From the IMG/VR virus record IMGVR_UViG_3300048919_000123, positions 1 to 64,000 of that record: 64,000 bases of DNA; one strand, 5' to 3'. Position numbers and translations under genes: made by a program. This DNA is from a virus. Below the pieces are notes generated by a model. It made no database searches. It had not been told where the DNA came from and saw nothing but the letters and a program-made list of their open reading frames with translations. This document shows, piece after piece, positions 38,016 through 44,610 of the stretch (position 1 is the stretch's first letter; each line of letters begins with the position of its first letter).

Positions 38016-38249
38016 TCACTTCTCGAAGGGGTCAGCTGGGCGAGCAACCCCGCGGACGAACCACATGAACCCTTGTTGCAGCTGACTTCTGGCGATAGCC
38101 AGCGCACGTTGGTCTACGTTGGGGATTTCACTGATCTGCTTGAACAGCGCACCGGTGTCGGCTTCCAGAGCCTTGATCGAATTCATGCCGTCGATCTCAC
38201 TCTGGGTCAGATCTCGGTAACCTGTGATCTTTTTATGCTGGTTGTCCAT
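38016..38249 (-). CDS. acb2: anti-CBASS cyclic-nucleotide sponge Acb2
   Basis: MDNQHKKITGYRDLTQSEIDGMNSIK is nearly identical to my recollection of the Pseudomonas phage Acb2 N-terminus (Y11 and K26 kept); C-terminal RxLAIA..LQxGxMxxxRxxAxP. Confidence 0.9.
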   Translation of the reverse strand: MDNQHKKITGYRDLTQSEIDGMNSIKALEADTGALFKQISEIPNVDQRALAIARSQLQQGFMWFVRGVARPADPFEK

Positions 38250-38386: not shown

Positions 38387-38881
38387 TTAGAGGTCAGCCT
38401 CGGTGATGTCAACGTAGTAGGCCTTTCCCTGCTCCAGGTGGGCGGCGATGTCGCTGCGCACGTTGTAGCTCAGGGAGCCATACGGGGTGTACTTGCCGAA
38501 CACGCCGTCTTCCTCGGTCGGGTTGGGGCTGTACACGGCGCCGAAGGTGCACCGGGTCAACGGATCGTCCGCGCTGCCCACGTTCGGGGTGAGACTGTGC
38601 AGGGTCATCTTCAGGCGGGTTGTGCGGCGTGGGGTGGCAGGTTCGATGTGAAGGCCCATGCCGCAGAGCGACTCGCCGACCTTGAAGGGCACGCTGTTCT
38701 CGTCGAAGCGTTTGGCGCAGTCACTGACGCTCCCGGTGTCGATGGTCGAGCGCTTCACGGCGTCATGCTCTGCAAGTTGGCGAGCCAGGTTCTCAACGGC
38801 TGGCGGGGTGGTGATTGAGGCGACACTGGCGTCCAGAGCCTTGTGGGCTTCCTCGAGGTAGTTCTGGGTCTTGATGGTCAT
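38387..38881 (-). CDS. hypothetical phage protein (YTPxG...YYVD domain)
   Basis: MTIKTQNY... start with AGGA RBS; compact C-terminal beta domain. Confidence 0.75.
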   Translation of the reverse strand: MTIKTQNYLEEAHKALDASVASITTPPAVENLARQLAEHDAVKRSTIDTGSVSDCAKRFDENSVPFKVGESLCGMGLHIEPATPRRTTRLKMTLHSLTPNVGSADDPLTRCTFGAVYSPNPTEEDGVFGKYTPYGSLSYNVRSDIAAHLEQGKAYYVDITEADL

Positions 38882-39067
38882 GGTGGGTGATCCTGTCGTG
38901 GAGGGTGTGGGTGTGGGTGTGGTGGAACGGCAGGATGGGGCTTGCGGATCTGGCGCCTGCGAGGGTGAAGCATAGGGTGGAAATTGAAAAAAGTAAAAAA
39001 TCCTGACGCTGACCAAGGCAATGAAGCACGCCTCTGCCGTGCTAGAAAATAGGGGGCGGGGTGGGTC

Positions 39068-39127
39068 AAATTATTTTCACTTTTTCTACATTCTTCGCTT
39101 GCGCTTATAGTCTTATACCTCTAGTAT
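39068..39127 (+). promoter_or_regulatory. strong early sigma70 promoter with UP-like A/T tract
   Basis: TTGCGC (39099)-17 bp-TAGTAT (39122), preceded by AAATTATTTTCACTTTTT. Confidence 0.75.
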
Positions 39128-39211
39128 TTGAACTGTAGACAGCAACACCGCCTCACCGCTTCACCCGGCTGGCCCTTGGCCCGCCACTGGCTAGGCCTTT
39201 GCCTTGCCGCC

Positions 39212-39224
39212 CGCTCTTTAACAA
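39212..39224 (+). promoter_or_regulatory. boxA antitermination element 1
   Basis: CGCTCTTTAACAA, matching the rrn/lambdoid boxA consensus. Confidence 0.8.
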
Positions 39225-39583
39225 TTTGGTTCACCGCTATGCGGACTAAGCGACAACACCTGTCAGGCTCACTCGGGCCGGGCACGGGGAAGTCTTGCCA
39301 ACGAGAATGATTATCAGTGTTATCTGCACTTCACCTGATAACCAGTACAAGCAAGACGTTCCATTAACTCTATGCTGCTACCTGCACCACGAACGGGGTA
39401 ACAGTAAAAAGACTAGACGATAGGACTACCCGTTTCCACTGGGGTACGTCATGCCACCCTGACACGTACAGGGATATCTGAGGACATAGAGTTATTTACC
39501 GGTATCAACTAGTCAGGCCGACTCACTCGCCCACTGGGCAGTTAGATGTTAGCCAAACGCCACGCACCGAACCGAACTGTTAT

Positions 39584-39595
39584 CACTCTTTAACA
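39584..39595 (+). promoter_or_regulatory. boxA-like element 2
   Basis: CACTCTTTAACA, one mismatch to consensus. Confidence 0.55.
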
Positions 39596-39861
39596 TTACT
39601 AACCGAACTATGCTAACCGAGACGCACGGGATACTAGCGCATTACCCAAGCATTACCCCAAACATGATTCACCTATGCAGTATCACCGACATACACACAA
39701 CGGTTAGACACACCTGAATAACAAGGGTTGTTATTCCCAAGATAACAACCCTCGCGATGAACTAAGCATTTAGAATTTGAACTCCCCTAACCCCAGTGGT
39801 TTAGATCAAGTAGCTGTATCGGCTACTTGCCATAACTCACTAGCAATAAGGAATTAGAACC

Positions 39862-40647
39862 ATGGCCAAGAAACCACAACTGACCCTCACTGTGCAGGGC
39901 AAACAAGTTAACAACACCATCATTGCTGCCTACGCCAAGCGCGTTGGTTCGCTGGATGAAGTCCTGTCTGTCTGGGCTAACGCTGCAACCCTGCAAGTTG
40001 CCATCCACGGCAACCGTAACTGGATGGATGCCTTGTTTGATGTTCCAGTGATGCGCCTTGCTTCTGGCGCCCTGAGCAAAACCGGCAAGGAAGTGTTTAA
40101 CTACATTTCCGCCCACTGCCCACGGGTAGTATGGAACAAGGAAAACAACACGGTCGGCATGACTAAGTTGCAGAAGGACAGCATTCTGGCAACTCACTTT
40201 ATCGCGGTCGGTGCGACCGAAGAAAGCGAAGTGGTCAGCCTGCACCGTAACAAGTTCTACATGGCTCACGGTGACTTCGCCCTGACGCTGACCGCTTTCA
40301 AGAATCTGGTTAAACCAGAAGTCGAGAAAGAAGAGCAAGAGGAGAAAATGACCGCCGCCGCGTTCATCAAACAGGCGGACAAGGCGCTCAATTGCTTCAA
40401 TGCGCAACGGTTTGTCGGCACCGAAGACGAACTGCTGACCGCCATGACCAAAGCAAAAGCGCTGTTTCTGGCGCTGGACGCCCAACTGGTCGAAGCCGAA
40501 AAAGCGAAACTGGCGAAACTGGCAGAAAGCGGTATTGCCGCGACCGCCGCCGACGTGGTCGACGTCGCCAAGGCCGACGAACTGCACAAGTCGGGTCAAG
40601 CCGGCAAGGCCCTGCGCGCTGGCGGCAAAGTCGCAAAAGCCGCCTAA
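39862..40647 (+). CDS. first early-region protein, function unknown
   Basis: 261 aa, strong TAAGGA RBS, followed by a GC hairpin at 40665-40686. Confidence 0.85.
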   Translation: MAKKPQLTLTVQGKQVNNTIIAAYAKRVGSLDEVLSVWANAATLQVAIHGNRNWMDALFDVPVMRLASGALSKTGKEVFNYISAHCPRVVWNKENNTVGMTKLQKDSILATHFIAVGATEESEVVSLHRNKFYMAHGDFALTLTAFKNLVKPEVEKEEQEEKMTAAAFIKQADKALNCFNAQRFVGTEDELLTAMTKAKALFLALDAQLVEAEKAKLAKLAESGIAATAADVVDVAKADELHKSGQAGKALRAGGKVAKAA

Positions 40648-40710: not shown

Positions 40711-41124
40711 ATGCTTGCAGCCGCCCTGATTACCCTTGCCTGTTCCCTTGCCCCGGCCCAACCGGGAATCGCCCCACACGACCAGTGCGACCGTCTGGTG
40801 ATGCAGCGGTGGGAAGGCCCGACCACTGAAGAGCTGGACGATTGTGTGAACATGGCCGAGTCCCTGACCCTGATGGGCCAGCGTTCCACCTGCGAATTGC
40901 AGCGCGCCGAGGAGGAACCCGCCGTCGCCCTGTACCCCGCGCCGCCGGTCAAAGGCCCAAGCCGCGCGCTGAATGGCAAAACCCTGGCCAGCCGCAACAG
41001 CGCCCCGGCCGAATTGTCGAACCGCGACCTGTACAACCAGCGCGGCACCGGGGTTGAGCCGCCGAAAGCGCGGTTCATCATGCCCAACCCGATCGTGCCG
41101 ATGCCGGTCAAGTTCATGTACTGA
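40711..41124 (+). CDS. putative exported protein
   Basis: Hydrophobic N-terminus, several Cys, GGAG RBS. Confidence 0.7.
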   Translation: MLAAALITLACSLAPAQPGIAPHDQCDRLVMQRWEGPTTEELDDCVNMAESLTLMGQRSTCELQRAEEEPAVALYPAPPVKGPSRALNGKTLASRNSAPAELSNRDLYNQRGTGVEPPKARFIMPNPIVPMPVKFMY

Positions 41125-41156: not shown

Positions 41157-41189
41157 GGCCAGGCGCGCTAACCCGTGCCTGGCCTTTTT
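41157..41189 (+). terminator. intrinsic terminator
   Basis: GGCCAGGCGCG/CGTGCCTGGCC stem plus TTTTT. Confidence 0.8.
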
Positions 41190-41274
41190 ATTCCGCGCGC
41201 GCCCGTGGGCGCGGGCCATGGTGATCGGCTGACAAGGTCAGTTTGACACTGAAAAGCAGTTGAAATTTTCCCAG

Positions 41275-42684: not shown

Positions 42685-42761
42685 AGGTGTGGCTGTTGAT
42701 CTTGTTTACCGAAGGGAAACAGAAAGATAAGGGCATTTACATGCAAGGCCTGTGCCAAAAT

Positions 42762-43320
42762 CCCCTCTATACCTATACCTAATAAGTTATTAGTAGGGGG
42801 TATATAGGGGGGTATGGGGGGGGGGGAGAGAGGGAGGTAGGGTAGATAAATATTAAGGTGAGATTCTCGTTTTTGGATTTAAATGCGGAGGCCTATTTGC
42901 AAATCTAATACTCGCTGTTGATTTCTAAGGGGCGCGAATTTGAAAAACGTGTTTTGCGTTTTTATCTAGGGCGATAACGTCACCCTCGCCTACACCCAAA
43001 CCCTCACCTTCCCTTCAACCCTACCTAAACCGGCACTCTCAGCCTCACCTTCCCCTTCCACCTTTCTTTCAGCGTACCGCCTCAACCCCGCATAATCTGC
43101 CGCCGTCACCTTCACTCACGCCTTATACTTTCAAGGTCGGCCTTACCGTTCGTCGACCCTGACCCTGAGGTCAGCTTTGCAAACCGTAATTTAAATAGTG
43201 AAGTAACCAGTTGGTACATTATCGTTTTATACAGGGCAAAACTTGAACCTTTCTAAGAAACTGTCCTGATTTTTTATCGTTTTATGCTAATCTATAAGCA
43301 TAACCCTCCTTAGAGCCCTA
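42762..43320. other. origin-like non-coding region
   Basis: Inverted repeat, G-runs (G11 at 42816-42826), AT-rich stretch, C/T-rich repeats, 12-bp direct repeats. Confidence 0.45.
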
Positions 43321-43326
43321 TATACC

Positions 43327-44610
43327 ATGAACTTTCAGCTACTTTCCGCCCGAGCTGTAGAGGAGCGTCTCCAGCCTAAGCCCCGTCGCCCCTCAAAGCC
43401 CCGTCTACCAAGGCTTGCGAGCCTCGGCTGCTACCTGCCCGCCGGTGACATCAAGGCCCATTTCCGCGCCCTCGGTGCCCACCTCGACCCCGACAGCCCT
43501 GAAATGGAGGCTGCCGCCGCGGTGTTCGCCAGCTCCCTGCTCGACGCACTCGGCGAGGCCAGCAAACCCGAACGCAGCCTCATTGGCCCGGCCCGCTACA
43601 GCGACCGCATCCTCGCCAAATACTGCCGCTGGTTGCAGAAGTCGGCGTTCGGGCTGCCTGGCGTGGATCTGGTCAGCCCCGCGCTTGTGCCGTACCTGCT
43701 CGGCGGCATCCCGATCAAGGCTGTCGAGGATCTGGCGCACCGGGCGCTGGAGGTCATGGACTTCTTCCCCGACCCCCTCAGCGACTACACGCTGGGCAAG
43801 TTCGCTGCGGTCGGCTTCGGCGCGCGGCCGCACATTCACCACGACGTGGAGGTCATCAAGCGCTTCTCCAACTTCAGTTTCCGTCAGGAGTTCATCCTCG
43901 ACCTGCCGCGCACCGGTTCCTACAGCCGGCTGCTGATCGACAGCGGCGCTTATGGCGCGTCCGCCCGGCGCAAGATCGCCATGATCCAGCCCCAGATCAT
44001 CGCCGAGGTCGAACAGCTGCTCGACCCTGAAAGCGGTGAGATGGGAGAGGTGGCAGCCCACGGCCGGGAGCCGCTGAAGGTCACGGCGTTGATGTTCAAT
44101 CGCGCTGTGCGGCGGGTGTTCGAAAGACCCTGGGCTGAGCTGGACTTGTCCGGTGACCCGGCCGACTTCCATGCCGATGCCGAGGTGCTGCTCGCCCGCC
44201 GACTGATCGTTCATTTGACGTCAAAGGAACGGCAGCGCGAGAAGGACACGGTCAGCGCTCAGACGTTGGTCGGAATGTCGCTACTTACCGGCATTTCGCT
44301 GGCCAACTGGACGGAATTTGCCGTCTATGATCTACGCAGGCGCGGGGAGACTTTCCTCACTGCCGAGGCCATCGAGGCGGCGATCCGCATCGCCGAGGTG
44401 TCGCCGTATTTCCGCTGCGCCGAGGCGATGACCGAAGCGGCGACGGAAATCAAGTTCGCCTCCATGGAGAAGGCGGCGTGGGCACGGAGATTGCGTTCTG
44501 GACGCCAGCCACTGTGGAGCACCAGCGGTCGTTTCTACCAGAACGGCCTTGACGGTGACGGGTTGCCGACGTTCAAGCACAAGCCGTACCGCCTCTCGGA
44601 TGATGGCTAG
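43327..44610 (+). CDS. hypothetical protein (427 aa)
   Basis: Long ORF directly after the origin-like gap; no motif recognised. Confidence 0.8.
   Translation: MNFQLLSARAVEERLQPKPRRPSKPRLPRLASLGCYLPAGDIKAHFRALGAHLDPDSPEMEAAAAVFASSLLDALGEASKPERSLIGPARYSDRILAKYCRWLQKSAFGLPGVDLVSPALVPYLLGGIPIKAVEDLAHRALEVMDFFPDPLSDYTLGKFAAVGFGARPHIHHDVEVIKRFSNFSFRQEFILDLPRTGSYSRLLIDSGAYGASARRKIAMIQPQIIAEVEQLLDPESGEMGEVAAHGREPLKVTALMFNRAVRRVFERPWAELDLSGDPADFHADAEVLLARRLIVHLTSKERQREKDTVSAQTLVGMSLLTGISLANWTEFAVYDLRRRGETFLTAEAIEAAIRIAEVSPYFRCAEAMTEAATEIKFASMEKAAWARRLRSGRQPLWSTSGRFYQNGLDGDGLPTFKHKPYRLSDDG

Follow-up and report, generated by a model that had tools for sequence, protein, structure and literature searches.

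The DNA analysed here, called the window throughout, is the first 64 kb (64,000 nucleotides) of the 83,664-bp IMG/VR virus record IMGVR_UViG_3300048919_000123, whose completeness is estimated at 96 %. Judged by its sequence, the record comes from an uncultured Pseudomonas siphophage, kin of the phages Lana, PMBT3 and UAntarctica. The subject of this work is a gene-free stretch of about 730 nt (positions 39134-39845, plus strand), hereafter the leader, which is placed exactly at the divergent junction between a leftward and a rightward module. On its left the minus strand carries an Acb2-family gene, a GpA-type large terminase gene and an S49 protease gene, and these leftward genes form the packaging/structural module. 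On its right lies a long run of plus-strand genes, mostly without known function. The first of them, gene 1 (261 aa, 39862-40647), stands directly behind the leader in all 11 loci compared below, and its start signals (39848-39864), comprising the Shine-Dalgarno sequence AAGGA (39848-39852) and the ATG at 39862, are conserved in 11 of 11 leaders. The leader represents a new RNA family of Pseudomonas siphophages in which two boxA sites bracket a fold, and arrangements of this kind have in part been published.

A sequence search with the stretch matched only three isolated phages, PMBT3, UAntarctica and Lana, at 75-78 % identity over 37-44 % of the query, and each of them has an unannotated gap of ~840-910 nt at the same divergent junction. 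Further contigs were collected by searching IMG/VR and the JGI metagenomes with the gene 1 protein. After removal of duplicates 11 distinct leaders were available, those of the window, L007, PMBT3, UAntarctica, Lana, L006, L018, L014, L025, L020 and L022, with L007 as the nearest relative of the window, and all 11 were included in alignment A3. Pattern scans of IMG/VR DNA for the boxA2 module (described below) returned family members and three chance hits only; the latter, L011, L030 and L032, were inspected, found to be unrelated and discarded. No relatives of gene 1 were found in 185,579 prokaryote genomes (GTDB). The leader RNA family appears from these searches to be limited to Lana/PMBT3-like Pseudomonas phages.

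The preliminary description of this DNA, made from its letters without database searches, had pointed to a region without any credible open reading frame (ORF), and comparison with the relatives bore this out. The region 39134-39845 is non-coding, with no ORF common to the 11 homologues. The idea that it hides one or more small protein-coding genes has in its favour that several plus-strand ORFs of 26-60 codons can be drawn, but none of the ORFs drawable in the 11 leaders is kept in position, frame or length. The third-position bias expected of a gene is absent: between the window and L007 the leader substitutions fall in the three phases as 36, 35 and 47, whereas in the adjacent gene 83 are found at the third position and 11 and 7 at the other two. 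The leader insertions and deletions between the same two sequences (1, 1, 2, 1, 11, 1, 19... nt) are mostly not multiples of three and would shift the frame. A hidden small gene was therefore considered extremely improbable.

Despite this lack of coding capacity the leader is constrained. Invariant ungapped columns make up 22.1 % of the leader in alignment A3, compared with 5.9 % of third codon positions (and 40-52 % of first and second positions) in the adjacent gene, which indicates that it is under purifying selection. A search of the window and 10 homologous loci with the 4227 models of Rfam 15, under gathering and E-value thresholds and also proposed by the preliminary description, gave no match in the leader; the matches obtained were tRNAs outside it, and the best E-values in the leader region were at least 0.06 and differed between loci. 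Contigs of the DNA runs X5, X7 and X14 span the stretch. In run X19, guessed to be RNA, a single 279-nt contig covers 39426-39700 and the rest of the 1.8 kb is empty, and no conclusion about expression was drawn from it.

A candidate sigma70-type promoter (39099-39127, plus strand) was read by eye directly upstream of the leader. It consists of a -35 element TTGCGC (39099-39104), a 17-nt spacer and a -10 element TAGTAT (39122-39127), and it is preceded by an A/T-rich tract at 39069-39098 which resembles an UP element, lies at the same place in the relatives and may act as one. An aligned candidate of the form TTGNNN, 17-nt spacer, TAnnnT or a near variant was recognized, also by eye, in 10 of 11 relatives. 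Transcription would start at 39134-39137, 7-10 nt past the -10 element, where the conserved block CTGTACCAAGCAACAACGAACACGCT begins in the relatives. The spacer contains a direct repeat, CTTATA-N4-CTTATA (39105-39120), both copies of which are jointly changed to TTAGAT in PMBT3 and L014, and it may be where a regulator binds to turn off the early promoter. The placement at the head of an early transcript with a boxA, as proposed in the preliminary description, agrees with these features, since the leader is situated between the putative promoter and the first presumed early gene and a boxA is present.

Two boxA sites were recognized in the leader. The gamma-proteobacterial boxA consensus GYTCTTTAANA and its role in Nus-factor function are described in the part of PMC5725501 devoted to them. 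boxA1, GCTCTTTAACA (39213-39223), is the sole perfect match to this consensus in the 64 kb, and exactly one perfect boxA per locus was found in 30 of the 33 loci scanned, the three without one being the chance hits L011, L030 and L032. boxA2, ACTCTTTAACA (39585-39595), has one mismatch, and a boxA-like sequence CTC[T/C/A]TTAACA is found at the corresponding alignment position of all 11 leaders, 289-373 nt past boxA1. By number alone near-matches to boxA are not significant (3 in the window against 2.3 expected), so that the evidence for the boxA sites rests on their conservation.

Two G+C-rich hairpins, H1 (39167-39185) and H2 (39188-39209), occupy a boxB-like position upstream of boxA1, with H2 ending 3 nt before it. 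One or two hairpins directly upstream of boxA1 were predicted in all 11 leaders, and their stem sequences differ. boxA2 has its nearest upstream hairpin, D3, at a distance of 30 nt. Conserved linear blocks lie 3' of both boxAs. Behind boxA1 a short hairpin, H3 (39234-39244), uses the GCGG of an invariant GCGGA (11/11 leaders) and is followed by the conserved linear block GCGACAAC, extending to 39260 and including the nearly invariant CGACAAC. The GCGG is always found within a stem of 4-6 bp, and its pairing partner differs between relatives.

The structure of the leader was approached by cutting each of the 11 sequences at conserved anchor motifs and folding the segments separately. The same chain of local elements was obtained in all or nearly all leaders, and the supported structure is a string of about ten local domains. 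Downstream of the boxA1 site the first of them is the hairpin H4 (39266-39279), present in 11 of 11 leaders with unrelated stem sequences just before the conserved ACGGGGAAG. It is followed by D1 (39288-39362), in which GGAA+GTCTTGC pairs with GCAAGAC+TTCC around the inner helix TTATCAG/CTGATAA. D1 is kept in L007 with one double change (TAATCAG/CTGATTA), and the same architecture with covariation was found in six relatives. D2 (39365-39494) is composed of an outer helix TAACTCTATG/CATAGAGTTA and four inner hairpins, as seen in the segment fold and in comparison with L007. Most relatives have a D2 ~60 nt shorter than that of the window and L007. Compared with the window, the L007 copy has double changes at 4 pairs of the outer helix and at 5 of the hairpin 39424-39450, and in the shorter D2 of six relatives double changes affect 8/10 and 8/9 pairs of the two long helices.

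D2 is separated from the next domain by a linker with the consensus TTAACCTTTATCAAC (39495-39511), nearly invariant in A3 and unpaired in the segment folds. D3 (39516-39554) is an irregular hairpin pairing GACTCAC with AGTTAGATGT and carrying a GCCC/GGGC tip; its shape is the same in 10 of 11 segment folds, with L018 differing. D4 (39599-39707), located past boxA2, is closed by the helix CTAACCG/CGGTTAG, which encloses GCACGGG, an inner hairpin and CACCGACATACA. The hairpin D5 (39724-39752) has a 12-bp stem in the window, and all 11 leaders have an uninterrupted stem of 7-13 bp at this position, each with a different sequence. Such a stem was matched by 0-6 of 300 shuffles in nine leaders, by 26 of 300 in L025 and by 40 of 300 in L018. 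In L007 (~2830-2900) the D5 hairpin is tandemly duplicated (GGGCAGGC..GCCTGCCC twice), and this tandem copy points to evolution of the hairpin by local duplication.

Between D5 and the last domain runs a conserved A/U-rich linker (GAACTAAGCATTTAGAATT..., 39757-39794), delineated from alignment A3 and a repeat search. Within it TAGAATTTGAACT (39771-39783) repeats the promoter -10/start region TAGTATTTGAACT (39122-39134), and a TTAGAAT between D5 and D6 is conserved in most relatives; the TAGAATTTGAACT repeat may be a second start without a -35 element or a nuclease site. The last domain, D6 (39795-39841), is a long interrupted stem-loop of 5 bp, 3 bp and 10 bp which ends 7 nt before the Shine-Dalgarno sequence of gene 1. 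Phage T7 has an RNase III hairpin before its gene 0.3, which offers a lead, and only a lead, for D6.

Pairs in D1-D2, the D4 closing helix and D6 were kept through compensatory changes beyond shuffled and slid controls. For D1-D2 in six relatives of equal length, 93.6 % of the cells were paired, with double changes in 25 of 42 pairs and none of 500 shuffles reaching the observed values on any of the five measures, a count that covers 6 of the 11 leaders, excludes the window and was made on a structure derived from the same six sequences; slid controls gave pairing of 44 % or less. The D4 closing helix (alignment A4, all 11 leaders) had 74.5 % of cells paired and double changes in 6 of 9 pairs, and D6 (alignment A5, all 11 leaders) had 93.9 % of cells paired and double changes in 10 of 18 pairs; the covariation score was reached by 0 of 500 shuffles in both cases, and slid controls of D6 gave pairing of 39 % or less. 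An alignment-free duplex test was also performed, in which the energy of segment halves from the same phage (cognate) was compared with that of halves from different phages in 5000 permutations. Cognate halves of H4 paired at -9.15 kcal/mol against -4.96 kcal/mol for non-cognate ones (0/5000 permutations as good) and those of D3 at -14.79 against -11.69 kcal/mol (1/5000). No permutation out of 5000 was as good for D4, and the result for D6 was weaker (179/5000). When the 149 pairs of the window's minimum free energy (MFE) segment folds were followed into L007, 119 were unchanged, 7 had one change, 13 had double changes, 7 were broken and 3 fell in gaps; 11 of the 13 double changes are situated in D1-D2. 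The plus strand also folds better than its shuffles, over the whole region (z -3.33, 0/20 shuffles), over 39285-39497 (z -1.90, 7/200) and over 39705-39845 (z -4.65, 0/200).

These data allowed the structural part of the preliminary description to be re-examined. All strings quoted there are present where it placed them, including three copies of CCACTGG and five of ACCGA. Several of its helices are supported by the relatives: GTCTTGC/GCAAGAC (39292/39351) and TTATCAG/CTGATAA (39311/39335) of D1, the outer helix TAACTCTATG/CATAGAGTTA (39365/39485) of D2 with its four double changes in L007, and the CCCTG/CAGGG helix. The hairpin at 39724-39752 is D5, and that at 39807-39829 is also real and extends to the limits given above for D6. 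The repeat GTCAGGC..CTCACTCG..GGGCA, noted there as occurring twice, is likewise genuine, its two copies corresponding to H4 and D3. The inner helix AACGGGGTA/TACCCGTT (39392/39427) turned out not to be conserved; TACCC pairs instead with GGGTA (39442-39446), a pairing retained in L007 by the five double changes mentioned. The suggested pseudoknot 39411/39503 (GACTAG at 39411 with CTAGTC at 39509) failed the duplex test, with cognate energy of -7.95 against -8.72 for non-cognate combinations and 4638 of 5000 permutations as good. So did the long-range pair CCACTGGGGT/ACCCCAGTGG (39436/39790), with -13.4 against -14.05 kcal/mol and 4018 of 5000 permutations as good. Its 5' arm sits in an insertion fully common to the window and L007 only, and its 3' arm takes part in local pairing with covariation as the lower stem of D6. 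The view of a large structured RNA hence has to be divided: a conserved, structured, non-coding element in plus orientation was found, and one global 730-nt fold resting on long-range pairs and a pseudoknot was not. The checks that it had proposed by covariation in homologues and by folding against shuffles are those reported above, and both came out in favour of structure.

The stretch is interpreted as probably being a leader acting in cis to load the Nus-factor complex of the host, protect the RNA from Rho and carry RNA polymerase into the early operon. In the rrn operon, as the sections of PMC6614801 on these sites describe, leader and spacer sites comprise a boxB-like hairpin, boxA and a linear boxC, the boxC joining an RNase III processing helix with the spacer, and NusB/E bind boxA and, with NusA, NusG, SuhB and S4, render the polymerase Rho-resistant. 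The virulent coliphage T7 is reported to carry a boxA anti-termination element downstream of its early promoters A0-A3 (the pertinent part of PMC3709561). The leader is read as an anti-termination element because this rrn/T7 logic occurs twice on a long, untranslated, C-rich RNA. Host RNA polymerase would transcribe the ~730-nt untranslated leader of the first rightward (early) unit from the candidate promoter at 39099-39127, and the transcript would contain two rrn-type nut-like sites, one made of H1/H2, boxA1 and its linear block and the other of D3, boxA2 and its linear blocks. As boxA appears in the nascent RNA it would be bound by NusB/NusE, which with NusA, NusG and SuhB would make the polymerase termination-resistant. 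Being long and ribosome-free, the leader RNA would be exposed to Rho, and the modified polymerase would be expected to cross this C-rich Rho target and continue into the early genes. D5, the A/U-rich linker and D6 would most plausibly serve as stabilising or processing hairpins of the message.

Several observations weigh against this interpretation. The promoter candidate shares only 7 of 12 positions with the consensus, and a promoter scan did not report it. The pattern boxA1+GCGGA+CGACAAC was not found in the 185,579 prokaryote genomes of GTDB, and the lack of the post-boxA1 block beside boxA in these genomes means that the boxA1 site is no simple duplicate of a host rrn leader. According to the relevant part of PMC6614801 rrn-type complexes mainly counter Rho, and a conserved intrinsic terminator, which the polymerase may or may not read through, is present at 41157. 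Anti-termination alone needs roughly 60 nt, not 730, and the conservation of D1-D4 is not explained by it, so this account of the function is incomplete; the way in which the shapes and loops of D1-D4 are kept implies that they do something beyond anti-termination. To these may be added the dependence of the D1-D2 covariation count on six leaders, stated above, and two measures that fail to indicate the strand. The minus strand folds with z -3.04, about equal to the plus strand, and for this reason folding energy alone cannot give the strand; the count of G-U against A-C on MFE folds did not separate the strands either and is uninformative because the minus strand is G/U-rich.

Other features of the plus strand bear on its orientation. 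It carries both boxAs, the Shine-Dalgarno sequence and gene 1, its C/G ratio is 1.24-1.56 in all 11 leaders, and in the aligned helices G-U alternates with G-C or A-U. These features are also pertinent to the view that the element works as DNA, either as a replication origin or as a protein-binding control region whose hairpins are DNA palindromes. The location suits an origin, as transcription changes direction at the stretch and the cumulative GC skew peaks there. Its G+C content is 0.44-0.54 compared with about 0.6 elsewhere in the profiled region, and the D2 loop of most relatives contains GATAnCCACACGG, which matches 8 of 9 positions of the DnaA-box consensus. That DnaA-like motif is, however, absent from the window, where 13 DnaA-box matches with at most one mismatch were counted, two of which lie in the leader, against an expectation of 19, and neither an iteron array nor a DnaA-box cluster was detected. 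Stems that keep their pairing while their sequences change fully are the signature of a folded strand and not of a protein-binding site. The frequency of G-U pairs in the aligned helices and the strand-specific excess of C over G in 11 of 11 leaders argue in the same direction, and a DNA-level element at this place was judged very unlikely. A second gene-free stretch (42700-43327), with repeat tracts, offers an alternative place for an origin. Located within the rightward block, it contains a tract of TATACC/GGGGGTATA repeats and a stretch of 11-12 G, with a partly complementary C-rich tract ~180 nt farther on (GGTAGGGT / ACCCTACC); an origin or a middle-promoter region could lie here.

The constraint on D1-D4 brings in another explanation, in which a folded part of the transcript, for instance the ~300-nt D1-D3 between the boxAs, would be cut out as a stable trans-acting RNA. 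Possible roles of such an RNA would be as a scaffold or as a sponge for NusB/E, Rho, an RNase or a defence protein. The conserved unpaired blocks and D1-D4 shapes do exceed the needs of anti-termination, and the invariance of the leader is well above the neutral baseline. The strong D5 without a U-run, the A/U-rich linker and D6 form a layout compatible with endonucleolytic release of the upstream RNA, and the two nut-like sites flank structured RNA as they do in the rrn operon. Extending this analogy, Nus-modified polymerase would help D1-D3 to fold before its release for a role in host take-over in the first minutes, although such a course of events is doubtful. A scan of 38700-40100 for intrinsic terminators or attenuators inside the leader gave only a weak site at 39175-39195, upstream of boxA1, and a U-run follows neither D5 nor D6. 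With no terminator or demonstrated cut site before gene 1, the untranslated front of an early message is the simpler reading. No helix was found between the rrn-style leader and spacer positions, nor does any long-range helix join the flanks of D1-D3 in the manner of the 16S RNase III stem, the long-range pairs tested having failed. A free-standing product was accordingly regarded as unlikely, and the preliminary description's suggestion of a decoy, scaffold or ribozyme found no support, in view of the missing terminator between the fold and gene 1.

The unit behind the leader suggests comparison with lambda. Nearly the same terminator stem as in the window is present in PMBT3 and Lana, and a different terminator occupies the same place in UAntarctica (counterparts at 4944-4971 of L001, 4944-4963 of L002 and 5245-5272 of L003). 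In the window the terminator (41157-41194, plus strand) has 11 bp in its stem, 9 of them G-C, and a T-run in the TTTTTATT behind it, and is predicted from the sequence to close a two-gene unit headed by the leader. In a lambda-style nut, boxA1 with H3 and/or boxA2 with its neighbours would recruit a phage protein, for which gene 1 is the candidate, and this protein with Nus factors would carry the polymerase past the 41157 terminator into delayed-early genes. The succession of promoter, boxA with hairpin, first gene(s) and strong conserved terminator mirrors pL-nutL-N-tL1 (nut layout as given in the section concerned of PMC6614801), with a short hairpin within about 15 nt of boxA as in lambda nut and gene 1 behind the leader in 11 of 11 loci. 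Unlike lambda boxB, H3 is conserved neither in register nor in loop, the partner of its GCGG being switched between relatives. Gene 1 has no Pfam or PHROG family, and its AlphaFold model (mean pLDDT 71.3) gave no Foldseek match with E <= 0.001 in PDB and BFVD, the best matches being uncharacterised phage proteins. N proteins carry an arginine-rich motif; no small arginine-rich protein is encoded before the terminator and no N-like protein was recognized among genes 1 and 2, the latter encoding a small signal-peptide protein. Recruitment of a phage-encoded anti-terminator was on this balance thought improbable.

The gene 2 protein (window 40711-41124; L001 4626-4916, L002 4487-4759, L003 4671-4943) has an N-terminal signal or lipoprotein-like segment and a conserved motif ESW.GP...EL..C..MA, and is possibly a surface or exclusion protein made early. 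Past the terminator ~370 nt without a credible gene extend as far as an ATG (41568); the ribosome site in front of it, TTAAGGAATTAGCC, is similar to the one of gene 1.

Among other phage-borne RNAs, GOLLD and ROOL are structured and several hundred nt long, and the put RNA of HK022 acts in cis to make the polymerase termination-resistant. Rfam includes GOLLD and ROOL; unlike these, the leader matches none of its 4227 models. The anti-termination leader proposed here comes close to the rrn operon sites in several respects: a perfect gamma-proteobacterial boxA stands right after G+C-rich hairpins and before a conserved linear block, a second boxA follows a few hundred nt on, and the two sites bracket structured, ribosome-free RNA. 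It departs from them in that the bracketed RNA consists of ~300 nt of phage-specific domains, not rRNA, and that the unit enters protein-coding genes; in addition no leader-spacer helix was found, and the post-boxA block was not found beside boxA in the 185,579 genomes. With T7 it shares a host-type boxA in an untranslated leader behind host-polymerase early promoter(s) (the corresponding part of PMC3709561). It differs in host and phage group and in having two boxAs and ~600 nt of covarying domains, and no sequence similarity to T7 was found.

The PMBT3 paper and a term search of the Lana paper gave no mention of the leader gap in the text covered, and no description of a boxA leader in Lana/PMBT3-like phages was found in the limited collection of literature searched. 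The preliminary description had spoken of an undescribed system; this holds for the RNA family, and it does not hold for a boxA behind the early promoters of a virulent phage, which is in print for T7 (PMC3709561, in the part cited above). Large structured RNAs with many domains are rare, and conservation in at least 11 Pseudomonas phages with unusually clear covariation makes the leader a well-defined new family. It extends a pattern in which virulent phages of different hosts place the host's rRNA anti-termination signal atop long untranslated early leaders. Should the domains do no more than stabilise and process the message, the result amounts to a neat annotation; should they have an activity of their own, it would bring to light an RNA-based step of host take-over. 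Direct testing is possible because PMBT3 and Lana have been isolated and their hosts are named in the records.

A few features outside the leader were also recorded. A conserved block upstream of the early promoter (38990-39066) has the composition AAAAAATCC..GACC.AGGC..GCACG-N7-CGTGC..TAGAAAATAGGGGGCGGGG, and a 17-mer within it, GTGCTAGAAAATAGGGG, is unique in the window. This block is a candidate control region for the leftward (late) genes. The 5' region of the leftward transcript (38885-39060, minus-strand RNA) gave no folding signal (z -0.89). In Lana (L003, 1355-1476, minus strand) a weak RsmY-like covariance-model match was obtained beside a tRNA, with 22 bits against a gathering threshold of 57 and an E-value of 0.29, and it is probably due to chance. 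Finally, 0.9 kb to the left of the leader the minus strand (38016-38249) encodes a 77-aa protein with a Pfam Acb2/Tad1 hairpin domain (E 5e-18), a match to the anti-CBASS nucleotide-sponge family.

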